From: Escherichia phage phiWec181
Length of the DNA stretch: 64,000 bases
Sequence record: LC739534.1
Strand: one strand, 5' to 3'
How positions within the stretch are numbered: position 1 is the stretch's first letter; each line of letters starts with the position of its first letter. Below the pieces are notes generated by a model. The model saw only the letters and a list, made by a program, of their open reading frames with translations. It was not told the origin of the DNA and ran no database searches. The translations under genes and the position numbers were made by a program. Shown piece after piece: positions 40,341 through 51,026 of the stretch.

Positions 40341-40398
40341 GAGCGGCACCATTGCCGCCCTACGTGATACATCTTACACTATCAGATACATTGTGCAA
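40341..40398 (-). promoter_or_regulatory. PeSL-like cassette, hairpin class I
   Basis: TTGCAC, ~16 nt, TAAGAT, 10 nt, GGCGGCA-ATGG-TGCCGCT hairpin ~20 nt before ATG of CDS 40117..40320. Confidence 0.5.
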
Positions 40399-40404
40399 GC
40401 TATT

Positions 40405-40596
40405 TTAGATCTCGTCACCTATATAATCAGATCTGTTCTTCTCTGTCATACGTTTTAATAATTCTTGCATATCGCTTATAGCTTGCAATGTGTCTTCTTC
40501 CAGGCTTGAATCCACATAGTCAGGATCATTCTTTACCTTGCTATGGTTATGATAGCGCAACGCTGCTAATACCTTTCTAACTTGTTCCACGTTCAT
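40405..40596 (-). CDS. hypothetical protein (63 aa)
   Basis: ORF; weak SD AAGGG. Confidence 0.45.
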   Translation of the reverse strand: MNVEQVRKVLAALRYHNHSKVKNDPDYVDSSLEEDTLQAISDMQELLKRMTEKNRSDYIGDEI

Positions 40597-40605
40597 GATG
40601 TACCC

Positions 40606-40725
40606 TTAAAATAGTGTGCCGATGGAAGATAGCAGGTCACTAATAACCAGGACCAGATCTACTATCACATATCTAATCAGGAAGGGGATTAGCGCCAGCG
40701 TCGCTACTATGATCCCCATTGTCAT
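40606..40725 (-). CDS. small hydrophobic peptide (39 aa)
   Basis: MTMGIIVATLALIPFLIRYVIVDLVLV...; SD GAGAAAGG upstream; not in ORF track. Confidence 0.4.
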   Translation of the reverse strand: MTMGIIVATLALIPFLIRYVIVDLVLVISDLLSSIGTLF

Positions 40726-40736
40726 GATTACCTTTC

Positions 40737-41027
40737 TCATTGTTGGCGGTTTACATAAGCTTTACCGTTTACGGTCATCGGTATGGCCTCAAGGTCTGGA
40801 TCTTCCTTAAGGTCGCGTGCAAGCTCACCGCACCGGACACCCTCGAATCCGTGGTATTCTGTTTCCCCGTTCTTAAAAGTTTTAGCGGCAAGGCATAGGC
40901 GATAATTAACACCGATCCGGTTTACTGCGTTGATATCGGTTAACGTGATCGATTCCGGCAAATCGTTAGCCATTACAGGCGCGTTAATACCAACAACCAG
41001 GGCAACTACTGCGATCATCTTTTTCAT
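40737..41027 (-). CDS. small secreted protein (96 aa) with signal peptide
   Basis: MKKMIAVVALVVGINAPVMA signal-like N-terminus; SD GGAAGAGGA upstream. Confidence 0.5.
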   Translation of the reverse strand: MKKMIAVVALVVGINAPVMANDLPESITLTDINAVNRIGVNYRLCLAAKTFKNGETEYHGFEGVRCGELARDLKEDPDLEAIPMTVNGKAYVNRQQ

Positions 41028-41062
41028 GTGTCTATCCTCTTCCTATTGCGTTTAATGGGGCG

Positions 41063-41299
41063 TTATTGATTGATGTTATGATGAAAGTTATTTTCTTCAA
41101 CGGCTTTTAAAATAAAGGCTGTTACCGCTTTCGTGTCTACTTGTTCGAACGTATCAGAATAAGCCCAATAATAATCATCCCCTACTTTAGGCGGGTAAAC
41201 CTGGACAAGGAGATCGCCACCTGGTTGATCTATAAGCTCAACATGTAAGCCGGATGATTCAGCGGTTTTAACGGCGTTTAATACTGTTGCAATACTCAT
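41063..41299 (-). CDS. hypothetical protein (78 aa)
   Basis: SD GAAAGGAAAAG upstream. Confidence 0.5.
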   Translation of the reverse strand: MSIATVLNAVKTAESSGLHVELIDQPGGDLLVQVYPPKVGDDYYWAYSDTFEQVDTKAVTAFILKAVEENNFHHNINQ

Positions 41300-41318
41300 A
41301 ATCTTTTCCTTTCTAATG

Positions 41319-41334
41319 TGGGGCGTTGCCGCCC
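41319..41334 (-). promoter_or_regulatory. intergenic GC hairpin without adjacent promoter
   Basis: GGGGCG-GCAA-CGCCCC between CDS 41344..41643 and 41063..41299; no -35/-10 next to it. Confidence 0.3.
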
Positions 41335-41343
41335 CTTTGTTGA

Positions 41344-41643
41344 TTAGATCGCTGTTTCCAGTAGTTCGGCTAACGTCTTACCGCCTGATAGTTGGTCTAA
41401 CGTTTGCTCTTCTGACAAGAAATTAGCGGATATTAAACCGACCTGGTTCCCTTTGTGCCAGTTAGCCTGGCGGGTGATTCCATCCTTTAAGGATTTTACC
41501 GCCATTGTGCAACCATCACCAAATGATTCATTTTTATGGTCCATCACTTCATAAGCGCCCAGCTTGCTGCTGTTAGGCACCATTAACGCGAATACATCAC
41601 CAACAACCAGTTTTTCTACGGTAACAATAGCGATAGTTTCCAT
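41344..41643 (-). CDS. hypothetical protein (99 aa)
   Basis: SD TGAGGAAAAC upstream. Confidence 0.5.
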   Translation of the reverse strand: METIAIVTVEKLVVGDVFALMVPNSSKLGAYEVMDHKNESFGDGCTMAVKSLKDGITRQANWHKGNQVGLISANFLSEEQTLDQLSGGKTLAELLETAI

Positions 41644-41660
41644 TTTGTTTTCCTCATTAT

Positions 41661-41718
41661 CGGCGGCACCATTGCCGCCCTACGTGGTAAATATTATCAC
41701 ACTGGCGATCTGTGTCAA
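41661..41718 (-). promoter_or_regulatory. PeSL-like cassette, hairpin class I
   Basis: TTGACA, 16 nt, TAATAT, 10 nt, GGCGGCA-ATGG-TGCCGCC hairpin, then CDS 41344..41643. Confidence 0.5.
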
Positions 41719-41724
41719 TACTTT

Positions 41725-42111
41725 TTATTCAATATAAATCAAATTATCTTCACCAATGTAAGCCGACACGTCCGGCATGAATTTAGCGGCATTTGTTAGG
41801 CGGTTGGCTGTGTTAGTAGTGTATATTTCAGGGCGATCCCAAAATCCTACGCCGTGACCGTTACGGGTAAAATGTAAATCATTCCCGATCTGGTTGGCTG
41901 TAGCGCCGTCGCTCATTGCTTCCGCAATAGCGGCAACGTTAGCATTACAAAATGATGTAACATCGTCCGCGATACGGTCCAGGGCTTGAGAAGAAAAATC
42001 ATAATCGTCTAAGTTATCAATAAAATCACCTTCGTGATCCCTGGCTGATTCAGCAAAAATAAAAACGTCTTTATAACCGTTGATGATTTCGTTAATGATT
42101 TCTGTTTTCAT
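41725..42111 (-). CDS. hypothetical acidic protein (128 aa)
   Basis: SD AAAGAGAGA upstream. Confidence 0.55.
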   Translation of the reverse strand: MKTEIINEIINGYKDVFIFAESARDHEGDFIDNLDDYDFSSQALDRIADDVTSFCNANVAAIAEAMSDGATANQIGNDLHFTRNGHGVGFWDRPEIYTTNTANRLTNAAKFMPDVSAYIGEDNLIYIE

Positions 42112-42125
42112 GTTGTGTCTCTCTT

Positions 42126-42230
42126 TTAACCGATACCGTGGGAAGATAGGATCATATTAGCCATAGTTGCAACCACTCCAACCGATAACGCCAGGCCAAC
42201 TACTGCAACCGTGAAAATTTTCTCTAACAT
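42126..42230 (-). CDS. small hydrophobic peptide (34 aa)
   Basis: MLEKIFTVAVVGLALSVGVVATMANMILSSHGIG; SD GAGGGTAG upstream; C-terminus resembles 40606..40725 peptide; not in ORF track. Confidence 0.4.
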   Translation of the reverse strand: MLEKIFTVAVVGLALSVGVVATMANMILSSHGIG

Positions 42231-42248
42231 GATGCTACCCTCATTAAT

Positions 42249-42310
42249 GGGCGTTGCCTTATTGCCCCGCCCTACGTAATACAGTTTACCCGATTTATAA
42301 TTGTTGTCAA
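42249..42310 (-). promoter_or_regulatory. PeSL-like cassette, hairpin class V
   Basis: TTGACA, 16 nt, TAAACT, 10 nt, GC hairpin GGGCG...CGCCC, then small ORF 42126..42230. Confidence 0.45.
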
Positions 42311-42311
42311 A

Positions 42312-42593
42312 TTATTTTTTCAAGCTTGACCACTCAAAACACGGCGGGATCTCGTTAAAACTTGCACCCTGTAAAGCACATAATTTTTTAGCAATAGCCG
42401 CCGTAACCTGGCGTTGTACGCGCGGATCTGCTACTGATTGGAGAAAGTAGGCGGCTTTATATGTGATCATGCTTTCGCCTGTTTCCTTGTTAACGTGGTG
42501 CACTATTTTAGCCTTATCATCTTTAACCAGGGTGTAACCGGATTCGATGGCCTTGATTGCAACGTCCAATGATATTTTCATGATTTGTCTCAT
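42312..42593 (-). CDS. hypothetical protein (93 aa)
   Basis: ATG only 7 nt after hairpin and without SD; possible short-leader translation. Confidence 0.45.
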   Translation of the reverse strand: MRQIMKISLDVAIKAIESGYTLVKDDKAKIVHHVNKETGESMITYKAAYFLQSVADPRVQRQVTAAIAKKLCALQGASFNEIPPCFEWSSLKK

Positions 42594-42599
42594 CTGATA

Positions 42600-42658
42600 A
42601 GCGGGGCGGTTGTCGCCCCTGTAAAATGAATACTACGCGCTTATTTTGCTGTTGTCAA
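42600..42658 (-). promoter_or_regulatory. PeSL-like cassette, hairpin class III
   Basis: TTGACA, 17 nt, TAGTAT, ~10 nt, GGGGCG-ACAAC-CGCCCC hairpin, then CDS 42312..42593. Confidence 0.5.
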
Positions 42659-42823
42659 CAACGGGCGAAAAAACTTTTTGATCTGGTTTGCTGTTAGGCG
42701 CATATCTGCTTTGAGCGTTGCCAGGCGATAAGCTTTACCCTTGATCAGTTTATGGTGTCCGGTGCCGTTGCCGATGATAACATCGATTTCACACAATACG
42801 CGGGAAGCATCAATCTTTTTCAT
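42641..42823 (-). CDS. hypothetical basic protein (60 aa)
   Basis: SD GAAAGGTAA upstream. Confidence 0.45.
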   Translation of the reverse strand: MKKIDASRVLCEIDVIIGNGTGHHKLIKGKAYRLATLKADMRLTANQIKKFFRPLLTTAK

Positions 42824-42843
42824 GTTGTTACCTTTCGTGTTAT

Positions 42844-42899
42844 GGGGCGCTTGTCGCCCCCTGTCTGATAAAGATAATCCCTTTCGGGATATCTGTCAA
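42844..42899 (-). promoter_or_regulatory. PeSL-like cassette, hairpin class III, with second hairpin in promoter spacer
   Basis: TTGACA, 17 nt (contains ATCCC-GAAA-GGGAT), TATCTT, 10 nt, GGGGCG-ACAAG-CGCCCC. Confidence 0.5.
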
Positions 42900-42905
42900 C
42901 TATTT

Positions 42906-43091
42906 TTATTGTACGGTGTGGCGATCGCTGTATTCAGCGTAAAACTCACATCCATCGTCACGGCTATCAAGTTTAACGATGTACCCGCTATTCCAACGTT
43001 CAACTGATACTACCGGATAATACTTCCCGTTAAGGATATTTTTCACCAGGTCGCCTTTTACCAGTTCTTTCGTTTTCTTGTAAGTAGTCAT
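42906..43091 (-). CDS. hypothetical protein (61 aa)
   Basis: ATG 43091 preceded by AGAAGAGAAAAC; ORF-track start 43172 would lie inside the promoter cassette. Confidence 0.45.
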   Translation of the reverse strand: MTTYKKTKELVKGDLVKNILNGKYYPVVSVERWNSGYIVKLDSRDDGCEFYAEYSDRHTVQ

Positions 43092-43110
43092 GATGTTTTC
43101 TCTTCTGTTT

Positions 43111-43172
43111 TGCGGTGGACCGTTCCGCCGCCCTATGTAATAAACTATACGCGCCAACGTTCCAGGCGTCAA
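43111..43172 (-). promoter_or_regulatory. PeSL-like cassette, hairpin class II
   Basis: TTGACG, 17 nt, TATAGT, 10 nt, GGCGGCGGA-ACGG-TCCACCGC hairpin. Confidence 0.5.
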
Positions 43173-43289
43173 GTATATTTTTAAAATTATTTTCTACAAC
43201 GTAAAACGCCCCAGCATAAGCCAGGGCGCACTAATTAAATCAGGTAGGGGATTGCATTGCCTTACACCTTTTAGGCTGTTAGCTGGCGA

Positions 43290-43517
43290 TTAGTAGCGTA
43301 GGATGTTTACACGCTCATCCCGCCCCAAGATATCTTCATATCTGTTTCCCCTTCCTTCGTACCAGATGATCACGGTGTCAGGATCAAACGGATTGTTTTC
43401 GATAGCCGTTACCTTACAAAAATCATAAAACGGGAACGGATAAACGCCAACCTGTAAACGCGCCCGATCTCCTGGGCGAATGGTAGCGGCACGATCTGCA
43501 ATGACATTGTTATACAT
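43290..43517 (-). CDS. hypothetical protein (75 aa)
   Basis: SD TAAGGGG upstream of ATG 43517. Confidence 0.45.
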   Translation of the reverse strand: MYNNVIADRAATIRPGDRARLQVGVYPFPFYDFCKVTAIENNPFDPDTVIIWYEGRGNRYEDILGRDERVNILRY

Positions 43518-43527
43518 AGTAAGCCCC

Positions 43528-43806
43528 TTAACGATTATAAACATTGTGGATGGCATCGAAAGCAAGCCGACCATAAGCCGCCAAATCGGGATTGATCCAG
43601 GCGTTATCTAACATCGTTTCAAGGACTGTGGAATCATCGTATAAAGCATCATAAAAATCTGCACGGATGATCGTTTCAATATCGTCCGGTGTTAGTTCCC
43701 TGTTAAGGTTGCAAACCGCTAAAACGTCCACCAATAATTTCCAATCTTGCAAATTAGTGGTTAATACTGTTTTCATTTCTTCGGTTGTGAGTTTAACGAT
43801 GGTCAT
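43528..43806 (-). CDS. hypothetical acidic protein (92 aa)
   Basis: SD AGAGAGATAA upstream. Confidence 0.5.
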   Translation of the reverse strand: MTIVKLTTEEMKTVLTTNLQDWKLLVDVLAVCNLNRELTPDDIETIIRADFYDALYDDSTVLETMLDNAWINPDLAAYGRLAFDAIHNVYNR

Positions 43807-43823
43807 GATTTTATCTCTCTGTT

Positions 43824-43882
43824 AGGCGGGGCGCTTGTCGCCCCTATGTGATACACTTTATCAGATTGGTTGGGCTTGTCAA
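43824..43882 (-). promoter_or_regulatory. PeSL-like cassette, hairpin class III
   Basis: TTGACA, 17 nt, TAnnnT -10, GGGGCG-ACAAG-CGCCCC hairpin, then CDS 43528..43806. Confidence 0.5.
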
Positions 43883-43883
43883 A

Positions 43884-43994
43884 CTATTTTTTCTTTTTCT
43901 TTGCTTCCAACCGTCTAAGGTTACGGCTTGACTTATTGCGCAAGGCGCTTAGATCGTCGTACCCTTTCCATGCTTGCATATCTTTCGGATTCAT
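43884..43994 (-). CDS. small basic protein (36 aa)
   Basis: MNPKDMQAWKGYDDL...KKKKK; SD TAAGGGGGG upstream of ATG 43994. Confidence 0.4.
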   Translation of the reverse strand: MNPKDMQAWKGYDDLSALRNKSSRNLRRLEAKKKKK

Positions 43995-44004
43995 GTTAGC
44001 CCCC

Positions 44005-44211
44005 TTAACGCGTTGCGTAAATAATATGACTTGCCGGACTACTGCAAACCAGGTTAAGCGGCTTGCTGTTATATTGCATCTTGTCGGCTTGTTTGCTTGC
44101 TGCGATGATTCCATCTATTACACGTTGCAAACTAACCTTTACCGCCTTTTTTGCCAACCGTTGACGCTTTACCAGTGCCTGGATCTTTTTCTTGTCTGCG
44201 TTGCTTAACAT
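44005..44211 (-). CDS. hypothetical basic protein (68 aa)
   Basis: SD TAAGGGCG upstream. Confidence 0.45.
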   Translation of the reverse strand: MLSNADKKKIQALVKRQRLAKKAVKVSLQRVIDGIIAASKQADKMQYNSKPLNLVCSSPASHIIYATR

Positions 44212-44410: not shown

Positions 44411-44530
44411 TTATAAGATGATTGATAAGATAGTGATAACGAAAGCGATAACACCAACGGCGATCGTAGTCTTACGCCCTTCGGATACTGCCGGATTCTC
44501 TACCGTGTATTCTACTGTGTATTTGTTCAT
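44411..44530 (-). CDS. small hydrophobic peptide (39 aa)
   Basis: MNKYTVEYTVENPAVSEGRKTTIAVGVIAFVITILSIIL; SD AGAGGATAA upstream; not in ORF track. Confidence 0.4.
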   Translation of the reverse strand: MNKYTVEYTVENPAVSEGRKTTIAVGVIAFVITILSIIL

Positions 44531-44552
44531 TGTGTTATCCTCTCGCTTGCTT

Positions 44553-44610
44553 TGAGAACTATTCCCGCCGCCCTATGAATTAAATATACACTATCCCAAA
44601 ATGATTGCAA
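44553..44610 (-). promoter_or_regulatory. PeSL-like cassette, hairpin class IV (degenerate stem)
   Basis: TTGCAA -35, TAnnnT -10, GGCGGCGGGAATAGTTCTC region with weaker pairing. Confidence 0.4.
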
Positions 44611-44629: not shown

Positions 44630-44914
44630 TTATGCAGTAAACAGACCATCATTTACAACGGCGGCGATGATCTCCCGTGCCATTGATTCAGGGAACGGGG
44701 CGCTATAGTCCTGGCTTGTCTCGTCGCTGTCTGTTACCCAATGATAAGCCAACGAGTAAAAGCCTTTACTCCCTGTTTTCAGTGAAACGATGATCACTCG
44801 GTTAAGTCCATCGGTAAACGTTGCCGTTAATGTGTTATCATCTTGCGTCATGTTGGACAAGTAAGCGGCATCATTAACCAGGGAAAACAGTAGCACCGTG
44901 TTAGCTTTAACCAT
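44630..44914 (-). CDS. hypothetical protein (94 aa)
   Basis: SD GAGGAT upstream of ATG 44914, immediately after hairpin. Confidence 0.5.
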   Translation of the reverse strand: MVKANTVLLFSLVNDAAYLSNMTQDDNTLTATFTDGLNRVIIVSLKTGSKGFYSLAYHWVTDSDETSQDYSAPFPESMAREIIAAVVNDGLFTA

Positions 44915-44932
44915 GATTTGATCCTCAAACGG

Positions 44933-44990
44933 GCGCGGCACCATTGCCGCCCTACGTAATACACTTTACCTTATTTCTTCCAAAAAGCAA
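44933..44990 (-). promoter_or_regulatory. PeSL-like cassette, hairpin class I
   Basis: TTGCTT, ~17 nt, TAAAGT, 10 nt, GGCGGCA-ATGG-TGCCGCGC hairpin; -35 overlaps 3' end of upstream CDS. Confidence 0.45.
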
Positions 44991-45171
44991 GTTTATTTGC
45001 AATTGGTGACAAATAACGTTTACCCGCGTAAAACAGTACAGCGACACTAACCACGGCGGCGATCTCATGCATAGCCGACGGGAAACGAGTATCATAATAA
45101 GATCCAATAATAGCAATAGCGGCAACGGCTGCAACGTCGATAATGATTTTTTCTTGTTTTGCGGTGATCAT
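44971..45171 (-). CDS. small membrane protein (66 aa)
   Basis: Two hydrophobic segments; SD AAAAGGTAAAT upstream. Confidence 0.5.
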   Translation of the reverse strand: MITAKQEKIIIDVAAVAAIAIIGSYYDTRFPSAMHEIAAVVSVAVLFYAGKRYLSPIANKLAFWKK

Positions 45172-45192
45172 AATATTTACCTTTTTGTATGG

Positions 45193-45253
45193 TGGGGGGA
45201 ACTATTCCCCGCCCTGATGTAATACAGTTTAACAGATCCGGTTATAGTGTCAA
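45193..45253 (-). promoter_or_regulatory. PeSL-like cassette, hairpin class IV
   Basis: TTGACA, TAnnnT -10, GGGGAA-TAG-TTCCCC hairpin, then CDS 44971..45171. Confidence 0.5.
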
Positions 45254-45469: not shown

Positions 45470-45493
45470 TAAGAAAGGGCGCTATTTGCGCCC
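45470..45493 (-). terminator. rho-independent terminator
   Basis: GGGCGC-AAATA-GCGCCC hairpin followed by TTTCTTAT on minus strand. Confidence 0.5.
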
Positions 45494-45503
45494 TTGATTT
45501 GTT

Positions 45504-45650
45504 TTAGTCTTCCAGGTCCATCCATGCACGTTTCTCGGTGCGGTCGCGCTTAGTTTTGTTGCGCTTGTCGCCCTTGCGGATCACTTCTTCATTCCACGCT
45601 GCGCGTGTTTTAGAAGATTGGATTTTTTCGGCGCGATTAGATGTATTCAT
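45504..45650 (-). CDS. small basic protein (48 aa)
   Basis: MNTSNRAEKIQSSKTRAAWNEEVIRKGDKRNKTKRDR...; SD AAAGAGGAAA upstream; not in ORF track. Confidence 0.4.
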   Translation of the reverse strand: MNTSNRAEKIQSSKTRAAWNEEVIRKGDKRNKTKRDRTEKRAWMDLED

Positions 45651-45672
45651 GATGTTTCCTCTTTTTAGTTGT

Positions 45673-45731
45673 GAGCGGCACCATTGCCGCCCTACGTGTT
45701 TTAATTTACTTTATTGTTTGATGCCTGTCAA
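45673..45731 (-). promoter_or_regulatory. PeSL-like cassette, hairpin class I
   Basis: TTGACA, TAnnnT -10, GGCGGCA-ATGG-TGCCGCT hairpin, then small ORF 45504..45650. Confidence 0.5.
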
Positions 45732-45748: not shown

Positions 45749-46102
45749 TTATTCGTGGGAAAGTGTAAGGATCACACCTGCAATATATAACCAATAGTTT
45801 TCCCTTTCTTTCTGGATCTTGTTTTCGCTACTACGCTCGTTAATGTACCCCCAGGATGTTAACAACCGATCTACTTCCCAATACTCGAAAGCTATATTAA
45901 TATTTGACGGTAAACCTTGTAACCATGATGCTATTGCTCTGATAATGTTATGATCGTAACGTTTTTGATTATCGGTGTACCAATATTCAGATTTAAAACA
46001 GCGCATCAATTCCGCGATCTTCTCTTTCTCTTCTGTGATGCCATACTCGCTATAATCAATTGAGGCCAGAATATAAAGTTTAATTGCATTTTGTGCTTTC
46101 AT
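45749..46102 (-). CDS. hypothetical protein (117 aa)
   Basis: SD AGAAGAGAGA upstream. Confidence 0.5.
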   Translation of the reverse strand: MKAQNAIKLYILASIDYSEYGITEEKEKIAELMRCFKSEYWYTDNQKRYDHNIIRAIASWLQGLPSNINIAFEYWEVDRLLTSWGYINERSSENKIQKERENYWLYIAGVILTLSHE

Positions 46103-46121
46103 GGTGTCTCTCTTCTGTTGT

Positions 46122-46179
46122 GAGCGGCACCATTGCCGCCCTATGTGTTACATCTTACCGGATTTTTAAAACTTGTCAA
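46122..46179 (-). promoter_or_regulatory. PeSL-like cassette, hairpin class I
   Basis: TTGACA, TAAGAT -10, GGCGGCA-ATGG-TGCCGCT hairpin, then CDS 45749..46102. Confidence 0.5.
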
Positions 46180-46479: not shown

Positions 46480-46698
46480 CTATTTACTCACAACAGTATC
46501 GAAAACAAATTTTTCTTTGTTGTCGAAGCTAACATATCCGATTCGACCACGCAAGCCGCCAGTAGTGCCGTATTCGTAACCATCAAGGCCTTTAACCTTC
46601 CAATCCGTACCCATTAAAACCGCATTATATTTCTGACCAACTACAAACGCGCCACCAGTTGATTCAATGCAAACAACTTTAATTTTACGGATTGCCAT
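46480..46698 (-). CDS. hypothetical protein (72 aa)
   Basis: SD AAAGAGAGAAAG upstream. Confidence 0.5.
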   Translation of the reverse strand: MAIRKIKVVCIESTGGAFVVGQKYNAVLMGTDWKVKGLDGYEYGTTGGLRGRIGYVSFDNKEKFVFDTVVSK

Positions 46699-46766
46699 TT
46701 TCTTTCTCTCTTTGTGGTGATTGGTTTCTCTTCTCTATAGCGCCCATTATAAGGCGCTATAACGAA

Positions 46767-46934
46767 AAGTCAACGATTATTTTTTACGGCTTAAGGTGCC
46801 CAAGTTATCAGCGTGACGCAGACCAGGGAAGATCCAAGCGCCGGATTCATCTTTTACAGGTGCCTTAACACTTGCGCCCAGGTTGGCGGCGTTAACTTTA
46901 CGTGCTACGTTGCGAGCGGCTTCACGGGTAGTAA
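46767..46934 (-). CDS. small protein (~55 aa)
   Basis: MITFTTREAARNVARKVNAANLGA...; SD AGAGGAAAAC upstream; not in ORF track. Confidence 0.4.
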
Positions 46935-46957
46935 AAGTAATCATGATGTTTTCCTCT

Positions 46958-47020
46958 TCTCTTTGTTAGGCGGTGGACCATTCCGCCGCCTTGATGTAAT
47001 ACAGTTTACTCTATTTTTAT
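46958..47020 (-). promoter_or_regulatory. PeSL-like cassette, hairpin class II
   Basis: TTGCAA, 16 nt, TAAACT, ~11 nt, GGCGGCGGA-ATGG-TCCACCGCC hairpin. Confidence 0.5.
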
Positions 47021-47165
47021 TTCTTTGCAACTACTTTTATATTTTCTTTCTTTGCCTCTTCCACCTGGTCCGCCCACTGCTTACCCCACGTTTGAGCGTT
47101 ATAGTGATATTGACAAAGAGCAACACCACGTTTTAAACCAGCGATAGACTTTTTACCACATTGAC
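47007..47165 (-). CDS. small Cys-containing protein (52 aa)
   Basis: MKTCQCGKKSIAGLKRGVALCQYHY...; SD TAAGGGA upstream; overlaps -35 of downstream cassette; not in ORF track. Confidence 0.4.
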
Positions 47166-47186: not shown

Positions 47187-47399
47187 TTAGTTGATGATAG
47201 TCAGTGTAAAATTATAATCACCATTCTTATATAACACCATATTACCGAAGGTGCCGACTCGACGCATATCCATACGGATACCTATAACATCTTTAACGTC
47301 TTTAATGTTTTTAACGCCCGTGATATCTTTATTAAAATATTCCTCGTCTGAAAATAAAACTTGACTTGCATTTTTTAACAGTGTGCGGATATTAGCCAT
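47187..47399 (-). CDS. hypothetical protein (70 aa)
   Basis: Purine-rich AGAAGAGAGA upstream. Confidence 0.5.
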   Translation of the reverse strand: MANIRTLLKNASQVLFSDEEYFNKDITGVKNIKDVKDVIGIRMDMRRVGTFGNMVLYKNGDYNFTLTIIN

Positions 47400-47422
47400 C
47401 GTGATAATCTCTCTTCTGTTGT

Positions 47423-47480
47423 GAGCGGCACCATTGCCGCCCTACGTAATACAGTTTACTCTTTTTCTTTCCGGTGTCAA
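47423..47480 (-). promoter_or_regulatory. PeSL-like cassette, hairpin class I
   Basis: TTGACA, 16 nt, TAAACT, 10 nt, GGCGGCA-ATGG-TGCCGCT hairpin, then CDS 47187..47399. Confidence 0.5.
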
Positions 47481-47488
47481 CAATCTTT

Positions 47489-47716
47489 TTAGATTAATTC
47501 GTCCAGGCATAACAGGCGATCAACGTTGAGATCGGTCAGGCTGATGGTTGGCACCTGATAAGATTCGATGTACTCGACGCTTGCATATTCCCCAAAGTTA
47601 GCAATAGCCCACTTATTCAAGATCTCACATACATCATTAATCTTTTTGTTTGTTACAACTGCAATAACCTGGGAAGTGCCAACGGTGCCGGATACGCGAA
47701 CAATATTGATAGCCAT
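47489..47716 (-). CDS. hypothetical protein (75 aa)
   Basis: SD AGAAGAGAGAAAA upstream. Confidence 0.5.
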   Translation of the reverse strand: MAINIVRVSGTVGTSQVIAVVTNKKINDVCEILNKWAIANFGEYASVEYIESYQVPTISLTDLNVDRLLCLDELI

Positions 47717-47735
47717 GATTTTTCTCTCTTCTGTT

Positions 47736-47794
47736 AGGCGGGGCGCTTGTCGCCCCTATGTGATACATCTTACACTAATTTAAAACTTTGTCAA
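47736..47794 (-). promoter_or_regulatory. PeSL-like cassette, hairpin class III
   Basis: TTGACA, TAAGAT -10, GGGGCG-ACAAG-CGCCCC hairpin, then CDS 47489..47716. Confidence 0.5.
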
Positions 47795-47795
47795 A

Positions 47796-47876
47796 TTATT
47801 TTCTATTTCTTCCGTAATAGCCCAATTTATGATCTAAGCTAAAACGTTTTGTGAGATAGGTCGAACGATGTTTCAT
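47796..47876 (-). CDS. tiny basic peptide (26 aa), speculative
   Basis: MKHRSTYLTKRFSLDHKLGYYGRNRK; SD AAAGGAGAC upstream; may be spurious. Confidence 0.25.
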   Translation of the reverse strand: MKHRSTYLTKRFSLDHKLGYYGRNRK

Positions 47877-47889
47877 TTTTATGTCTCCT

Positions 47890-48129
47890 TTACATTCCAA
47901 CCATAGCGGCGCGGATCGCGGTAGTGCTATACTTGAAACCGTCTGGAGTTTTATCTTGTCCAGTCTGTTCCAGAAAGAGCATCATATCACGCGCCGCATC
48001 GTTACGGTTAGAATTATAACTAATAAATTCTTTCGCGGTGCGGTATAATGATTCATCGTTATTAATCCAAAGGCTTACATTCCAATGAGTTTTGTTTTTG
48101 TGACCTAAGAACATTTTTGATTTAGCCAT
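47890..48129 (-). CDS. hypothetical protein (79 aa)
   Basis: SD AAAAAGAGA upstream. Confidence 0.5.
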   Translation of the reverse strand: MAKSKMFLGHKNKTHWNVSLWINNDESLYRTAKEFISYNSNRNDAARDMMLFLEQTGQDKTPDGFKYSTTAIRAAMVGM

Positions 48130-48150
48130 GATGTTAATCTCTTTTTCAGT

Positions 48151-48212
48151 GAGGCGGGAACTATTCCCGCGCCCTATGTAATACAGTTTACTCTTTTTAT
48201 TCGTGCTGTCAA
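48151..48212 (-). promoter_or_regulatory. PeSL-like cassette, hairpin class IV
   Basis: TTGACA, TAAACT -10, GCGGGAA-TAG-TTCCCGC hairpin, then CDS 47890..48129. Confidence 0.5.
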
Positions 48213-48218
48213 TGCTTT

Positions 48219-48572
48219 TTATAAATCTTTTTTACGTTTTACATCGCTTGCATGACTGTATACAGCGATCCCATTATCACGACAAAAACGGGTAAGGTAT
48301 GATCCGCGTGAAAACTCTTTCCCTTCCAGGTCAACAACCTTGCTAAATTCTTCCAGGGCAACGGTATCAAAATGATCACCATAACCATATTGAAACGGCA
48401 CGTTAACAACTTCAATCAATTTACCGCCGATCTCAACGTCCACGCTTAAAGAAAAATATGTGTTACCGTAGGACTGTTGAAACCAGCGACGGGCGCTAAT
48501 GTGAACGGCTTCAATCTCACCAATTTTAAATTGAGTGTTACCCAGGATCGCAACGTTGATATTTTTAGCCAT
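48219..48572 (-). CDS. hypothetical protein (117 aa)
   Basis: SD AAAGAGAGAAAA upstream. Confidence 0.5.
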   Translation of the reverse strand: MAKNINVAILGNTQFKIGEIEAVHISARRWFQQSYGNTYFSLSVDVEIGGKLIEVVNVPFQYGYGDHFDTVALEEFSKVVDLEGKEFSRGSYLTRFCRDNGIAVYSHASDVKRKKDL

Positions 48573-48597
48573 GATTTTTTCTCTCTTTTTGGTTAGT

Positions 48598-48649
48598 GGG
48601 AAGTGTTCCCGATAAAAGTTATTATGCTTATACTATCGTTTTTTGTCAA
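48598..48649 (-). promoter_or_regulatory. PeSL-like cassette, hairpin class IV
   Basis: TTGACA, 17 nt, CATAAT, 10 nt, GGGAAC-ACT-TCCC hairpin, then CDS 48219..48572. Confidence 0.45.
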
Positions 48650-48668
48650 TAGTATAAGACTAAAACTT

Positions 48669-48848
48669 TTAACGATAATCATCGTAGGCTTTATTAACCT
48701 GGCGAATATAACATTCGAAAGCGAGATCAATAGAATCATATTCCCGCACATAATCCCCGTAAGAAACTACATACACACCTTTTTGATCCTCAAACGTCAT
48801 GATGATAGAATCCAGGCCGATGATTTCAGTTTTAGCGATGATAGTCAT
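48669..48848 (-). CDS. hypothetical protein (59 aa)
   Basis: MTIIAKTEIIGLDSIIMTFEDQKGVYVVSYGDYV...; SD AAAAAGGT upstream; not in ORF track. Confidence 0.45.
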   Translation of the reverse strand: MTIIAKTEIIGLDSIIMTFEDQKGVYVVSYGDYVREYDSIDLAFECYIRQVNKAYDDYR

Positions 48849-48867
48849 AATAATAACCTTTTTATTG

Positions 48868-48926
48868 TTGGCGGCACCATTGCCGCCCTACGTGATAAAC
48901 TATACCAGAATTTTAAACAGTGTCAA
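48868..48926 (-). promoter_or_regulatory. PeSL-like cassette, hairpin class I
   Basis: TTGACA, TAnnnT -10, GGCGGCA-ATGG-TGCCGCC hairpin, then CDS 48669..48848. Confidence 0.5.
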
Positions 48927-48936
48927 ACGTTTTTTC

Positions 48937-49182
48937 TTAGTTTGCGAAATATGGCGCGGCGGCTGATGCCGTTAATCTCCAAGTGATTTGGCTATCGATC
49001 AAGTATTCTTCATTCTTGATCCGCACGGTATCAATCGAGAAGTTACTGAAAGGCTTGCTCTTGATTTTACGAACAACCGTTACACGACGGTTATTTTTCA
49101 TCTCTTTTAACTGAATCCAGGCGTAACCTTTTTCATTGACAAATATTTCATTGTGATTGGTGATAGATGATAAGTGTTTCAT
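48937..49182 (-). CDS. hypothetical protein (81 aa)
   Basis: SD AGAAGAGAGAAAA upstream. Confidence 0.5.
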   Translation of the reverse strand: MKHLSSITNHNEIFVNEKGYAWIQLKEMKNNRRVTVVRKIKSKPFSNFSIDTVRIKNEEYLIDSQITWRLTASAAAPYFAN

Positions 49183-49203
49183 GATTTTTCTCTCTTCTGT
49201 TTT

Positions 49204-49265
49204 GAGCGGTGGACCATTCCGCCGCCCTATGTGTTACATCTTACTACTTTTTTAAACATTGTCAA
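49204..49265 (-). promoter_or_regulatory. PeSL-like cassette, hairpin class II
   Basis: TTGACA, TAAGAT -10, GGCGGCGGA-ATGG-TCCACCGC hairpin, then CDS 48937..49182. Confidence 0.5.
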
Positions 49266-49273
49266 GGATATTT

Positions 49274-49555
49274 TTAACTATATGATCCACATCGTTCGCA
49301 GTAGTGATCATCGTCGTCATCTGCTACCTGGCTGATAAAATGATCTACCTTTGCTTTCAAATTATTATAATTGCTTTCTACTTCCTGTAGTCGTCGTTGG
49401 TAGTATTCCAGGGCTTGCACATAGGCCATTTGTTCGGTTTTAGCTTGCATAGCTAAATTCATGCCACGCGTTTCATCGTATAACCAATAACCATCATTAC
49501 ATTCACTAATAGATAGTGTAGGGCTTAGTTTTTCGTGACGGATAACCTTGCTCAT
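49274..49555 (-). CDS. hypothetical protein (93 aa), coiled-coil-like with C-terminal CxxC
   Basis: SD TAAGGGG upstream; ends ...HYCERCGSYS. Confidence 0.5.
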   Translation of the reverse strand: MSKVIRHEKLSPTLSISECNDGYWLYDETRGMNLAMQAKTEQMAYVQALEYYQRRLQEVESNYNNLKAKVDHFISQVADDDDDHYCERCGSYS

Positions 49556-49565
49556 AGTGTGCCCC

Positions 49566-49676
49566 TTACTTCAAAATGATTGTTGTGATAACTGCTACGG
49601 TGATCCAGAATGGAACAACTAAGATAATAGCGTTAATCGTTCCAACTGTCAAACTATTTTCTTTCTTGATCATCAT
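49566..49676 (-). CDS. small hydrophobic peptide (36 aa)
   Basis: MMIKKENSLTVGTINAIILVVPFWITVAVITTIILK; SD AAGGAAAAC upstream; in frame with track ORF 49566..49799, whose N-terminal extension is rejected. Confidence 0.4.
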   Translation of the reverse strand: MMIKKENSLTVGTINAIILVVPFWITVAVITTIILK

Positions 49677-49683
49677 GTTTTCC

Positions 49684-49767
49684 TTACAGTGTCCAAAGAA
49701 TGATTTCAAGTGCAGCACGGAAACCAGGAATAAAATTGATTGCAAAAAACAGGGAAGTAGTAAACAT
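49684..49767 (-). CDS. small hydrophobic peptide (27 aa)
   Basis: MFTTSLFFAINFIPGFRAALEIILWTL; SD GAAAGGATAG upstream; not in ORF track. Confidence 0.35.
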   Translation of the reverse strand: MFTTSLFFAINFIPGFRAALEIILWTL

Positions 49768-49786
49768 TTTTCTATCCTTTCAGTTG

Positions 49787-49845
49787 TGAGCGGCACCATT
49801 GCCGCCTGATGAGTTAACTATAAGGGATCACGTTTTACCTGTCAA
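49787..49845 (-). promoter_or_regulatory. PeSL-like cassette, hairpin class I
   Basis: TTGACA, TAnnnT -10, GGCGGCA-ATGG-TGCCGCT hairpin, then the two small hydrophobic peptide ORFs. Confidence 0.5.
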
Positions 49846-50399
49846 CCTAAATCATCAAAATAAAGATAATTTTTTTCGGCTTCTTTCTTCTCTTCCTGTG
49901 ATGCCTCAAAGACTGGGAGAAAGTGATCAAAGGCGACGCACTCAACCGCTTGATCGTCTTCCTCTTCCTGGTCTTCCTCCTGGGCTATGGCTGCAATTTT
50001 GGCTAATTTCCTTTCAGCCTGGATCAGCTTACCATCTAAAACGCTTTTAGCGGTGCTGTACGCCGTCCAAGTGATGCGCTTACTTTCCAGCGCGGCATCA
50101 AGCGCCGCTATCTTGCTGGGGTATTCATCCAGGACACGAAAAGCCGGATCTACCTTGTACAGCGGATTATCTTTCGCGCCGTCGCTATCATCTGCGGCGC
50201 TTGCAATGTCAGCGTTACCATTCGCCAGCCAACCAGGGCGATCGCTGCGTGTTTTGGTATTCCCATGACTACGCGCCGATCTGTTGCCTACTTGCTCGCC
50301 ACTATAGCCAGGAGCATGATCGATCATGTCGTCCGGTATAATGCGCGGATCATTAACGTCATGTTTTACCCAGGACTGGATCACATATTCGCGCCCCAT
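49842..50399 (-). CDS. hypothetical protein (185 aa), acidic C-terminus
   Basis: SD AAAAGGGGTG upstream. Confidence 0.55.
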   Translation of the reverse strand: MGREYVIQSWVKHDVNDPRIIPDDMIDHAPGYSGEQVGNRSARSHGNTKTRSDRPGWLANGNADIASAADDSDGAKDNPLYKVDPAFRVLDEYPSKIAALDAALESKRITWTAYSTAKSVLDGKLIQAERKLAKIAAIAQEEDQEEEDDQAVECVAFDHFLPVFEASQEEKKEAEKNYLYFDDLG

Positions 50400-50659
50400 T
50401 ATACACCCCTTTTAACAATCATTTCACACACAAGAAATAAGCTGGCGGAATCACGGCAAGGATAGAAAGATGTACGATAATCTCTCACCCCTGCTTTTAT
50501 GATCTCCGTGGTTTTACCTGATAGCACATTGTAAATAGTGTAACTTGTCGGACTGTTTTTATATACCTTGCCAGGGTAGATCATAACATAACGAGCAAGG
50601 TTATAAAATTCCTCGTTACGAAAGGCTATGATCTTCCCGCATACCTTAAGAAAGTGCAC
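50399..50659 (-). CDS. hypothetical protein (86 aa), GTG start
   Basis: GTG preceded by TAAGGGGGG at 6 nt; start overlaps downstream gene stop. Confidence 0.45.
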   Translation of the reverse strand: MHFLKVCGKIIAFRNEEFYNLARYVMIYPGKVYKNSPTSYTIYNVLSGKTTEIIKAGVRDYRTSFYPCRDSASLFLVCEMIVKRGV

Positions 50660-50669
50660 GTTAGCCCCC

Positions 50670-50942
50670 TTACAGCAAAAAGTTTACTTGTCTTGCTGTT
50701 AATGTAGTATCAACCATTTTCGGGCTTTTATAATTGACAAAACGCGCGGTTTTTTCAATAGCGAAGCCGAGATAATCTTGTTTGTTGAAATTACATTCTT
50801 TCTTAAATGTTTCCCGTGCAATGGCGATCGCTGCGTCCAGGGATAAACGCCCGTCAATATTGATATTTGCGAAAGATCCGCCACCGCTCATAGGTTTACC
50901 AGTGGTGCCCGTTACGATCATTGTTGCGCTATATGATGCCAT
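50670..50942 (-). CDS. hypothetical protein (90 aa)
   Basis: ATG 50942 preceded by AAGAGAGATTATC; ORF-track start 50978 would lie inside the hairpin cassette. Confidence 0.5.
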   Translation of the reverse strand: MASYSATMIVTGTTGKPMSGGGSFANINIDGRLSLDAAIAIARETFKKECNFNKQDYLGFAIEKTARFVNYKSPKMVDTTLTARQVNFLL

Positions 50943-50964
50943 GATGATAATCTCTCTTAGTTGT

Positions 50965-51026
50965 GAGCGGTGGACCATTCCGCCGCTCTACGTGATACAT
51001 CTTATCAGGTTGTTGCCTGTTGTCAA
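50965..51026 (-). promoter_or_regulatory. PeSL-like cassette, hairpin class II
   Basis: TTGACA, TAAGAT -10, AGCGGCGGA-ATGG-TCCACCGCT hairpin, then CDS 50670..50942. Confidence 0.5.

Follow-up and report, generated by a model that had tools for sequence, protein, structure and literature searches.

Promoter-early stem-loop (PeSL) elements have been described in T4-type phages, namely RB49/phi1, T4/PST and KVP40/nt-1 (Arbiol et al. 2010, PMC2839356; Comeau et al. 2014, PMC4122927). They combine an early promoter of sigma-70 consensus, AT-rich upstream DNA and a stem-loop with runs of G and then runs of C, and next in line come the Shine-Dalgarno sequence (SD) and start codon of a small, functionally uncharacterised gene. 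They cluster in hyperplastic regions, and recombination between cassettes, with crossovers in or adjoining the stem-loop, explains insertions, deletions and replacements there (PMC2839356). The cassettes analysed here closely resemble PeSLs in these respects, PeSLs being the closest known kind; even the PeSL subclasses with the -10 or the -35 in the loop are matched, by the hairpins at 46739-46758 and 39102-39133.

The window (the whole stretch analysed, 64,000 nt) is 99.9% identical to Escherichia phage phiWec186, a Phapecoctavirus. Between about 39,550 and 51,030 it carries some 40 small genes of unknown function, all on the minus strand and all annotated as hypothetical, and about 24 promoter-plus-hairpin cassettes precede such genes (Table 1). 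A sequence-only reading of this DNA had placed the hairpins correctly at every position it claimed, with minus as the gene-sense strand of them all; two extra cassettes lie just beyond its range (hairpins 39883-39903 and 39571-39592). Within the window the hairpins are confined to the cassette region, and none was seen at strong promoters elsewhere in it. On balance, we lean towards reading the stretch as the hyperplastic early-gene region of a phiWec186-like Phapecoctavirus phage, built of PeSL-type cassettes whose hairpin acts in the mRNA.

Table 1. Cassettes and related elements of the region, all on the minus strand (promoter given as -35/spacer in nt/-10).
Element	Span	Promoter	Hairpin	Gene or ORF	Remarks
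Cassette	50940..51026	TTGACA (51026)/16/TAAGAT	class II, 50965-50988	50670-50942	leader/SD; ATG 50942
Cassette	49767..49845	TTGACA/17/TATAGT	class I, 49790-49806	unannotated small ORF	ATG 49769
Cassette	49180..49265	TTGACA/16/TAAGAT	class II, 49204-49227	48937-49182	
Cassette	48846..48926	TTGACA/16/TATAGT	class I, 48870-48887	48669-48848	
Cassette	48570..48649	TTGACA/17/CATAAT	short class IV, 48598-48610 (GGGAAcacTTCCC)	48219-48572	
Cassette	48127..48212	TTGACA/16/TAAACT	class IV, 48151-48174	47890-48129	
Cassette	47714..47794	TTGACA/16/TAAGAT	class III, 47740-47756	47489-47716	other hairpin classes at relatives' orthologous sites
Cassette	47397..47480	TTGACA/16/TAAACT	class I, 47423-47442	47187-47399	
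Cassette	46942..47031	TTGCAA/16/TAAACT	class II, 46968-46991	46777-46944	weaker -35
Variant cassette	46696..46773	TTGACT/16/TATAAT	46739-46758 (AGCGCC...GGCGCT)	46480-46698	-10 within hairpin loop
Cassette	46100..46179	TTGACA/16/TAAGAT	class I, 46122-46141	45749-46102	
Cassette	45648..45731	TTGACA/17/TAAATT	class I, 45673-45692	45504-45650	
Intrinsic-terminator-like hairpin	45475..45495		AAGGGCGCaaataGCGCCCTT, then T-run		annotated terminator in Schickermooser; contrast to cassette hairpins
Cassette	45169..45253	TTGACA/16/TAAACT	class IV, 45194-45214	44971-45171	
Cassette	44912..44990	TTGCTT/16/TAAAGT	class I, 44935-44951	44630-44914	likely ATG 44914
Cassette	44528..44610	TTGCAA/16/TATATT	weak class IV, 44554-44566 (GGGAAtagTTCTC)	44411-44530	one G.U pair
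Cassette	43804..43882	TTGACA/16/TAAAGT	class III, 43828-43844	43528-43806	
Cassette	43089..43172	TTGACG/17/TATAGT	class II, 43112-43132	42906-43091	loop AACGG
Cassette	42821..42899	TTGACA/17/TATCTT	class III, 42844-42860	42641-42823	
Cassette	42579..42658	TTGACA/17/TAGTAT	class III, 42603-42619	42312-42593	hairpin-gene-promoter unit missing in phiWec179, PsgM04F
Cassette	42229..42310	TTGACA/16/TAAACT	42249-42272 (GGGCGGGGCAATAAGGCAACGCCC)	small ORF	ATG 42231
Cassette	41641..41718	TTGACA/16/TAATAT	class I, 41662-41679	41344-41643	chimeric junction vs Schickermooser (extra gene there)
Promoterless hairpin	41297..41343		class III, 41320-41335 (GGGGCGgcaaCGCCCC)	41063-41299	8 nt past stop of gene 41344-41643; 20 nt ahead of ATG
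Cassette	40318..40389	TTGCAC/16/TAAGAT	class I, 40341-40360	40117-40320	
Cassette	39863..39942	TTGACA/17/TATTAT	class IV, 39883-39903	39632-39865	beyond earlier range; two G.U pairs; gene missing in SKA64, PsgM04F, nepoznato
Cassette, decayed promoter	39551..39625		39571-39592 (GGGCAAGCAATACAGCAAGCCC)	39185-39553	

The cassettes clearly form one family, duplicated and then diversified, as had been proposed from the sequence. Each runs from an AT-rich UP region through TTGACA, 16-17 nt, the -10, another 10-11 nt and a GC-rich hairpin (stem of 6-10 bp) to a purine-rich leader of 17-23 nt, predicted to be unstructured, which carries the SD and ends at the ATG of a gene of 30-130 aa. The promoters are near-consensus sigma-70: 50 sites were found versus 30.5 +/- 5.9 in shuffled sequence, and 24 of the 26 best matches (>=10/12) lie on the minus strand. 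The initial transcribed sequence is conserved as (G/T)TA(T/A)(C/T)AC(G/A)TAG. The distance from the -10 to the hairpin, previously called constant, is 10 nt in most window cassettes with a recognisable promoter, but 11 in four and 9 and 12 in one each; across the window and 15 related loci, 116 of 162 hairpin-bearing promoters have 10-11 nt. With the hairpin at this distance, promoter geometry predicts that its first base is about +4/+5 of the transcript, so that the hairpin is part of the 5' leader; if the flanking GUA...CAC bases pair, it would be flush with the predicted 5' end. A literature search found no transcription start site or half-life measurements for these phages. An AT-rich hairpin at 48627-48658 also carries in its loop the -35 of the 48570..48649 cassette.

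The four hairpin classes distinguished earlier all exist, with one further type (GGGCGGGGCAATAAGGCAACGCCC). Class I (8 copies) reads GGCGGCAATGGTGCCGC on the minus strand and class II (4 copies) G(G/A)GCGGCGGAA(T/C)GGTCCACCGC; class III (5 copies) is GGGGCG-N4/5-CGCCCC and class IV (4 copies) GGGAA-N3-TTC(C/T)C, with a stem mostly lengthened to CGGGAA/TTCCCG. Taken by class sequence, copies lie at 40343-40359, 41663-41679, 45675-45691, 46124-46140, 47425-47441 and 48871-48887 (class I), 46970-46990 and 49206-49226 (class II), and 45197-45209 and 48156-48168 (class IV); for the remaining copies these spans are the ones in Table 1. The A-AUGG-U loop, thought constant in classes I and II, is present in all eight class I hairpins but in only three of four class II hairpins, the one at 43112 having AACGG.

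That stems differ while pairing is kept was borne out statistically. In a covariance-model alignment of the hairpins (115 hits, 69 distinct), standard pairs made up 97.7%, compared with 90.1 +/- 0.6 in shuffles (0/500), and five of nine stem pairs varied on both sides (9/500 shuffles). The covariation score was 0.222, above both the shuffled control (0.102; 0/500) and slid partners (<=0.053). Pairing is kept across at least 15 helix classes, and when arms were swapped among 15 of them, the mean energy of -12.0 kcal/mol weakened to -8.7 (0/20000 permutations). In predicted transcript context 13 of 14 hairpins form and the SD leader stays unpaired. A metagenome search with the promoter and initial-transcribed-sequence pattern gave 128 matches; 108 had no GGGCGG-type hairpin (mean best hairpin -0.8 kcal/mol), and we regard these, mostly alone in their contig, as fortuitous matches to unrelated DNA.

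The further claim that structure and not primary sequence is under selection goes too far. Primary sequence is likewise constrained: the 5'-arm core GGGCGG/GGGGCG and the G-then-C polarity of the arms are nearly invariant, and it is because of this G-rich 5' arm and C-rich 3' arm that shuffles still pair at 90% and chimeras still reach -8.7 kcal/mol. Arm polarity is a sequence or strand constraint outside the reach of a pure structure model. As to whether RNA or a DNA cruciform is the folded form, the earlier reading had allowed both, and the evidence is mixed. Of 61 distinct hairpins, 46 fold better in sense than in antisense (p = 1.4e-4). G.U pairs, however, number 26 in sense versus 22 in antisense, and all four class II copies have a mid-stem C.A mismatch in the mRNA sense that would be G.U in antisense. 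In favour of a function in the mRNA, substitutions at orthologous sites follow G-C <-> G.U <-> A-U when read in sense (GCTC/GCCC, GGGC/GAGC, CGCC/CGTC).

Intrinsic (Rho-independent) terminators have a GC-rich hairpin of similar size. The genuine ones of the region consist of GGGCGC-N5-GCGCCC followed by a T-run, whereas the 12 nt behind each cassette hairpin on the gene strand are A/G-rich and hold no U-tract; we therefore rejected the cassette hairpin as an intrinsic terminator. A minus-strand terminator scan picked up four other hairpins and none of the cassette hairpins. The stem-loop might nonetheless attenuate or terminate transcription, as has been proposed for T4-type PeSLs, and so curb read-through from tandem strong promoters. 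One phi1 PeSL stem-loop matched the rrnB T1 terminator in lowering lacZ expression (PMC2839356), and about 24 co-oriented strong promoters face only some four canonical terminators with a U-tract over 13 kb (45475-45495, 43206-43229, 40082-40109 and 38590-38612). However, termination at a hairpin placed after its own promoter would also abort the transcript of its own cassette, and with the sequence context and the scan result this makes such a role unlikely in our view.

The same cassettes were found in Stephanstirmvirinae and Vequintavirinae, and their comparison shows that the conserved cassette blocks, namely UP/-35, initial transcribed sequence with hairpin, and SD/ATG, serve as joints for gene gain, loss and replacement and for hairpin swaps among relatives. 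At one orthologous gene, behind the same promoter, the hairpin is of class III here, GGGCGGGAAATGGTTTCCCGCTC in ESCO13 and GGGCGGGAAGTGGTTTCCCGCC in Schickermooser; recombination therefore exchanges whole hairpin modules. Thus, the stem changes described as compensatory do keep pairing but largely reflect module exchange and are mostly not stepwise mutations; orthologous sites differ in class. Homology breakpoints fall inside cassettes, which cover 23% of the region, in 24 of 48 cases (p = 4e-5), eight at the SD/ATG, six in the hairpin and initial transcribed sequence, three in the -10/spacer and seven in the -35/UP block.

These palindromes could instead function at the level of DNA, as hot spots of recombination or as substrates of a structure-specific nuclease or recombinase that acts on hairpins in extruded or single-stranded form, with RNA folding incidental, an idea also raised by the PeSL authors (PMC2839356). 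Three indels between related phages have their junctions inside the hairpin or where it adjoins the initial transcribed sequence, one orthologous site carries an exact reverse-complement inversion of the hairpin, C-run length differs among orthologues, and G.T and A.C irregularities occur on either strand. The inverted hairpin points to DNA-level events at palindromes. Nevertheless, at 6-10 bp the stems are short for a palindrome that must extrude as a cruciform, the occurrence of breakpoints in every conserved block fits ordinary homologous recombination and not a single site, and a purely recombinational role leaves the fixed distances to the -10 and SD unexplained; we consider this explanation rather improbable.

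The near-invariance of the 5'-arm core and initial transcribed sequence, and the constant geometry to the SD, would also suit a binding site, UAGGGCGG plus hairpin, for a phage or host protein co-regulating the early small genes, such as a translational repressor or shut-off endoribonuclease, and PHIRE flagged the motif as a repeated 20-mer in the phAPEC8 record. Loops and inner stems, though, vary widely between cassettes and orthologous sites, a degree of variation incompatible with one sequence-specific binder, and no candidate protein was found, leaving this quite unlikely. Very improbable is that the hairpins are functionless hitch-hikers in a gene-conversion repeat, kept palindromic by template-switch "quasipalindrome correction": modules are exchanged, an inverted hairpin exists and composition alone yields 90% pairing, but stable G.U and C.A irregularities stay uncorrected in many phages, and two phage subfamilies have retained the hairpin at one position, whereas it is missing from strong promoters elsewhere in the same genome.

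For a hairpin acting in the mRNA, we infer that the likeliest role is that of a 5' or intercistronic stabiliser or insulator. On promoter-initiated transcripts, the 5'-terminal stem-loop would shield against 5'-end-dependent attack by RNase E/RppH and keep the SD leader apart from RNA farther upstream; where transcription reads through from a preceding cassette, it might act as an intercistronic barrier against 3' exonucleases. That one hairpin, at 41320-41335, stands between two genes with no promoter favours a role that does not depend on initiation.

The mRNAs of ompA and T7 gene 10 are stabilised by 5'-terminal stem-loops when few nucleotides precede them. As in the ompA 5' UTR hairpin and the T7 gene 10 leader stem-loop, a stable hairpin is predicted here a few nucleotides from the 5' end, an unstructured SD leader follows, and stem sequence is free if pairing is kept; in contrast, the cassette hairpins occur about 24 in tandem, one without a promoter, and their 5' end is a predicted one. 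In GenBank record JX561091 of phAPEC8, the 20-mer GTAGGGCGGCAATGGTGCCG, the same as the class I hairpin, is annotated "Putative promoter determined with PHIRE" and stands directly after a "host dependent promoter"; that record takes it for a phage-specific promoter motif and not a hairpin, with neither classes nor a role in recombination. The sequence-only reading was incomplete in that both the PeSL-like type and the role as recombination joints were absent from it. PeSL hosts are T4-type phages, whereas the present cassettes belong to a Stephanstirmvirinae phage with relatives in Vequintavirinae; in phi1/RB49 the stem-loop most often covers the -10 or separates it from the -35, but the present hairpins almost always start 10-11 nt after the -10, and they differ also in having no U-tract. 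The array is thus of interest, yet has a precedent in the PeSL cassettes of T4-type phages.

The flagged stretch (40341-51026) shared 99.9% identity with Escherichia phage phiWec186 (LC739535), a Phapecoctavirus (Stephanstirmvirinae) of 154.5 kb, and matched 289 phage records, for most of which coverage was patchy (54-71% at ~87% identity), as expected of a variable region. All genes between ~38,600 and 51,250 are oriented on the minus strand. Each of the 34 genes under the phiWec186 match is annotated as "hypothetical protein", and in a PHROG scan of 10 genes nine fell into families of unknown function and one into no family. This E. coli Phapecoctavirus region was also present, at 87-98% identity, in three Campylobacter-labelled phages (MG065650 (B15), MG065656 (C3) and MG065672 (A141)) and in OR584014 (Pseudomonas phage PsgM04F) and OP562383 (Acinetobacter phage ABPW7); the host labels of these five records may reflect contaminating coliphages or mis-assignment.

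The cassettes share one order on the minus strand: an A/T-rich stretch, TTGACA, 16-17 nt, a -10 box (TAAGAT, TAAACT, TATAGT and similar), the conserved sequence (G/T)TA(T/A)(C/T)AC(G/A)TAG, a GC-rich hairpin, an A/G-rich leader bearing the Shine-Dalgarno (SD) sequence (e.g. CACAACAGAAGAGAGA) and the ATG. Around 20 cassettes carry TTGACA/16-17/TAnnnT behind A/T-rich sequence, and the units are intergenic, precede the SD and the beginning of small, functionally uncharacterized genes and cluster in a variable (hyperplastic) region, in both respects like the promoter-early stem-loop (PeSL) cassettes of T4-type phages. A sigma-70 consensus scan of the window found 50 promoter-like sites versus 30.5 +/- 5.9 in shuffles, with 24 of the 26 best matches (at least 10 of 12 positions) on the minus (gene) strand. 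The geometry is directly visible: the hairpin starts 10-11 nt past the -10 in nearly all window cassettes and ends 17-23 nt before the ATG, and a conserved C-purine step, that of CRTAG, stands at the expected +1. Transcription starting at the usual 7-8 nt past the -10 would begin on this step and place the hairpin from about +4; through pairing of the flanking GUA...CAC, the helix of many class I cassettes would reach the very 5' end. No transcription start sites for Stephanstirmvirinae or Vequintavirinae were found in the literature searched. Strong promoters outside the array (e.g. minus strand 28877, 26317, 24588 and 22347; plus strand 58194, 59555 and 60913) have short, unstructured leaders. 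Within the window, covariance-model matches are restricted to 39,878-50,995, in the early small-gene region, and Rfam at gathering thresholds matched no family anywhere in the window.

The four stem classes proposed in the sequence-only reading were all present on the gene strand: class I (GGCGGCA/TGCCGCC) in eight copies, class II (with a C.A mismatch mid-stem) in four, class III (GGGGCG/CGCCCC) in five and class IV (GGGAA(C)/(G)TTCCC) in four. A fifth hairpin type and two further cassettes were added to these (see the table). The loop noted as constant in classes I and II (AAUGG) recurred, as AUGG closed by A-U, in every class I copy and in three of the four class II copies. Cassette hairpins have energies between -8 and -15 kcal/mol; whatever the class, the 5' arm is rich in G and the 3' arm in C, as in PeSL stem-loops.

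Hairpins, cassettes and palindromes in and around the array
Feature	Coordinates	Remark
Hairpin with -10 in loop	46739-46758	
Hairpin with -35 in loop	39102-39133	
Hairpin with -35 in loop	48627-48658	
Hairpin without promoter	41320-41335	Between two genes; T-rich tail on plus strand
Fifth hairpin type	42249-42272	
Further cassette	39883-39903	Just left of flagged stretch
Further cassette	39571-39592	Just left of flagged stretch
Cassette hairpin	46124-46139	T-rich tail on plus strand
Cassette hairpin	49206-49225	T-rich tail on plus strand
GGGCGC-N5-GCGCCC hairpin	38590-38612	Terminator-like, bidirectional
GGGCGC-N5-GCGCCC hairpin	39155-39186	Terminator-like, bidirectional
GGGCGC-N5-GCGCCC hairpin	45475-45495	Terminator-like, bidirectional
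AT-rich perfect palindrome	52024-52055	Strong
AT-rich perfect palindrome	52076-52107	Strong

Several further observations concern individual hairpins. The AUG in the class I loop (AAUGG) opens ORFs at 44914-44944 and 49769-49799, and the GenBank CDS of phiWec186 equivalent to 44630-44944 begins at this loop AUG, as does ORF 49566-49799. For 44630-44944 the annotated start is probably wrong, since the PHROG profile (95 positions) fits the shorter protein from 44914, which has a proper SD. In the class IV hairpin at 45194-45214 and its orthologues (L001, L006, L013 and L016 among the compared loci), the C-run of the 3' arm varies (CCCA, CCCCA, CCCCCA, CCCCCCA), as expected from slippage, which alters the length of the stem and does not destroy the hairpin. 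A class II variant, GGGCGGCGGAATGGTCCAGCCGCTC, occurs in the metagenome contig OBRO01000001.1 (L086:~2700-2770), where an additional G replaces the C.A mismatch by a C-G pair and leaves the A bulged; it looks as if the window class II is a one-base deletion derivative or the variant an insertion derivative. To the right of the array, in a non-coding stretch, the two AT-rich palindromes share ATGAGAAT motifs (TTTGCAAATGAGAATTTTTCTCATTTGCA, GAATGAGAATGAGAATGATTCTCATTC) and could be operator- or origin-like sites.

To assess pairing, promoters were scanned in the window and 15 related loci (ESCO13, phAPEC8, phiWec179, Schickermooser, PsgM04F, SKA64, phi92, FV3, nepoznato, Serratia phage KKP_3264 and IMG/VR contigs) with the hairpin not used as a criterion. 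A hairpin of -8 kcal/mol or better accompanied 162 of the 244 promoter, SD and ORF calls, and it began 10-11 nt past the -10 in 116 of these 162; 56 distinct hairpin sequences were counted. The covariance model, R1, was derived from eight 9-bp hairpins; it recovered classes I, II and IV, missed class III and caught ~20 antisense copies of near-perfect palindromes, so that its counts are conservative and slightly contaminated. In the resulting alignment (115 of these hairpins, 69 distinct), standard pairs filled 97.7% of cells versus 90.1 +/- 0.6 in shuffles (0/500), five of nine pairs showed changes on both sides (9/500 shuffles), further pair types numbered 12 versus 9.6 (2/500), and the covariation score was 0.222 versus 0.102 in shuffles (0/500) and at most 0.053 with slid partners. 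MAFFT alignments A1 and A2, with their 3' arms out of register, were excluded from the pair counts.

Since the alignment had been fitted to the model, lacked class III and held some antisense copies, two alignment-free checks were added. Exchanging 5' and 3' halves among 15 helix classes weakened the mean energy from -11.99 to -8.66 kcal/mol (0/20,000 permutations), and a promoter-anchored pair table showed at least two Watson-Crick types differing on both sides at seven stem positions (at position 16, GC 29, CG 21, AU 7). Covariation across the stems exceeds the controls. The observation of the sequence-only reading is confirmed, and its interpretation is supported in part. The hairpins also fold in the predicted transcript context, lying within the minimum-energy fold with the SD leader unpaired in 13 of 14 cassettes (z-scores of individual cassettes, -0.65 to -2.96). 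The pattern of promoter plus initial transcribed sequence was too degenerate for metagenomes, where matches were mostly isolated, and it was turned into a negative control: 108 of 128 matches lacked a GGGCGG-type hairpin (mean best hairpin -0.8 kcal/mol), and we take these to be chance matches in unrelated DNA, as most stand alone in their contigs. The other 20 bore hairpins, all of GGGCGG type. A pattern scan of IMG/VR yielded 6 loci only.

Selection on structure and not on primary sequence, as initially suggested, is too strong a reading. Every class starts its 5' arm with GGGCGG or GGGGCG and has a C-rich 3' arm, which explains the 90% pairing left in shuffles and the folding of chimeras; some sequence- or strand-specific constraint therefore acts besides pairing. 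Read on the sense strand, point changes within a class behave in an RNA-like manner (G.U to G-C, GCTC/GCCC; G.U to A-U, GGGC/GAGC; G-C to G.U, CGCC/CGTC), the one disruptive exception being CCCACC in ESCO13. Of 61 distinct hairpins, 46 fold better as the sense strand (mean -1.24 kcal/mol, Wilcoxon p = 1.4e-4). Counting G.U pairs (26 versus 22 between strands) gave no decision, and class II retains a C.A mismatch in the sense strand that would be a G.U in the antisense strand. Taken together, the strand data lean towards a sense-strand RNA, short of proof.

We somewhat favor a hairpin that stabilizes or insulates mRNA, together with a PeSL-type role in recombination. The hairpin would then act in the mRNA. 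A transcript initiated at the cassette's own promoter would carry a 5'-terminal hairpin followed by an unstructured SD leader, by analogy the layout of stabilizing stem-loops; in a read-through transcript from upstream cassettes the same hairpin would be intercistronic and could block 3' exonucleases. The promoterless hairpin between two genes fits the intercistronic role.

A function as transcription terminator or attenuator is among the further traits listed for PeSLs, as are excised mini-circles of PeSL and ORF. In the window, the 12 nt past each cassette hairpin are A/G-rich on the gene strand, and a terminator scan of the minus strand listed no cassette hairpin; intrinsic terminators were rejected for lack of a U-tract. 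The missing U-tract and the position of the hairpin downstream of its own promoter make intrinsic termination unlikely. We regard attenuation as an unlikely function. Four real terminator-like hairpins in the region differ in kind from those of the cassettes. A further repeated family, distinct from the cassette hairpins, consists of the three near-identical bidirectional terminator-like hairpins in the table, which are bordered by runs of A and of T. On the plus strand, three cassette hairpins are followed by moderately T-rich tails (CCTATGTGTT, TTTGTTGATT) and pass a lax terminator scan, which most cassettes fail; they might weakly stop antisense transcription.

Recombination at the cassettes is seen directly. 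Orthologous sites, defined by the same downstream gene, differ in hairpin class from phage to phage, with promoter and initial transcribed sequence unchanged: site 47740-47756 carries class III in the window, GGGCGGGAAATGGTTTCCCGCTC in ESCO13, GGGCGGGAAGTGGTTTCCCGCC in Schickermooser and GGCGGGAAATGGTTTCCCGCC in phi92, and site 48151-48174 carries GGGCGCGGGAA..., GAGAGCGGGAA... or a class II hairpin. Much of the apparent compensation therefore comes from hairpin modules being swapped as units. At the sequence level, three junctions from one cassette to another could be resolved, as described for PeSL recombination. In phiWec179 and PsgM04F, gene 42312-42593 is missing with its hairpin and the next promoter, and the one cassette they have there combines the promoter of cassette 42658 with the hairpin and leader of the fifth-type cassette (both by window coordinates); SKA64, PsgM04F and nepoznato lack gene 39632-39865 (junction at CGTAGGGC); and in place of the window's single chimeric cassette (41663-41694), Schickermooser, PsgM04F and SKA64 have two class I cassettes that enclose an additional gene.

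An alternative is that the hairpin is a recombination target at the DNA level. At the site orthologous to 47423-47442, GGGCGGCAATAGTGCCGCCC is replaced by its exact reverse complement GGGCGGCACTATTGCCGCCC between SKA64 (L013:~8950-8990) and an IMG/VR contig (L008:~4600-4640), so that the hairpin, in effect its loop, has been flipped at its site. This suggests that such palindromes undergo events at the DNA level. Cassettes, 23% of the region, hold 24 of 48 distinct homology breakpoints (eight comparisons; binomial p = 4e-5), and these are distributed across every conserved block (SD/ATG 8, hairpin and initial transcribed sequence 6, -10/spacer 3, -35/UP 7), which fits ordinary homologous recombination on short patches and not a single crossover site. 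A DNA-level target is rather doubtful, and an integron-like attC site, with one fixed crossover in a folded palindrome, was rejected on this spread.

That the hairpin is a protein-binding site seems improbable. We consider it very improbable that the hairpins, beyond offering patches of homology, are recognized by a dedicated structure-specific system of large virulent phages. Such a system might mobilize single small genes in an integron-like way, or use a phage factor that recognizes the UAGGGCGG hairpin and thereby decides what becomes of all early mRNAs. It would account for the hairpin inversion, the conserved core of the 5' arm and the invariant polarity from G to C. Hairpins without any function are likewise very improbable. 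Three other candidates were rejected: operators of a dimeric repressor (half-sites unlike between cassettes), N4-type hairpin promoters (consensus sigma-70 boxes present, hairpin downstream of them) and RNase III sites, which need a stem of about two helical turns, far more than these stems offer.

If the preferred reading of a stabilizing hairpin in recombining cassettes is true, the modular promoter/stem-loop cassettes proposed to drive gene shuffling in T4-type phages are also at work in unrelated coliphages (phAPEC8-, phi92- and rV5-like), a therapeutically popular group. It suggests a general route by which large virulent phages gain, express and discard small accessory genes, many of them likely involved in host takeover or anti-defence. 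The uniform 5'-leader hairpin makes an RNA function directly testable, and the cassettes are a natural source of small, already diversified promoter-hairpin-leader parts for designing expression. In annotation, the reading would correct the "PHIRE promoters" of public records as well as start codons set at the hairpin-loop AUG. A little-studied gene-shuffling mechanism is extended to another major coliphage group, and nothing is overturned.

The 5'-terminal stabilizing stem-loops known from ompA and from the leader of T7 gene 10 place a stable hairpin within a few unpaired nucleotides of the mRNA 5' end, ahead of an unstructured SD leader. The window cassettes would have this layout, with a 5'-terminal hairpin predicted from the -10 gap and the C-purine step; as in ompA, pairing matters (covariation above controls), here with a strong G/C polarity constraint.

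PeSLs comprise sigma-70 consensus early promoters with AT-rich upstream sequence and stem-loops in which runs of G precede runs of C, with subclasses set by the position of the stem-loop; they precede small genes of unknown function in hyperplastic regions, and recombination between them explains differences among close relatives (PMC2839356; PMC4122927). The window cassettes agree point by point in promoter, stem-loop, small genes, hyperplastic region and recombination. The phAPEC8 GenBank record labels the class I 20-mer GTAGGGCGGCAATGGTGCCG a "putative promoter determined with PHIRE", directly past a "host dependent promoter"; within incomplete coverage of subscription literature, we found no work calling this 20-mer a hairpin or tying it to PeSLs. 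Nor did the literature searched describe the cassettes in Stephanstirmvirinae or Vequintavirinae, and an earlier description, e.g. in the phAPEC8 genome announcement, is possible. PeSLs have been described only in T4-type myoviruses, whereas the window phage belongs to Stephanstirmvirinae/Phapecoctavirus, and phi92 (Justusliebigvirus) and FV3 (Vequintavirus) share its cassettes. The window stem-loop also differs in lying almost always past the -10, and hence in being transcribed, and in having no terminator-like tail. The cassettes are PeSL-like elements outside the T4-type phages, with the stem-loop in the 5' leader: the kind is already known, and the variant is new.
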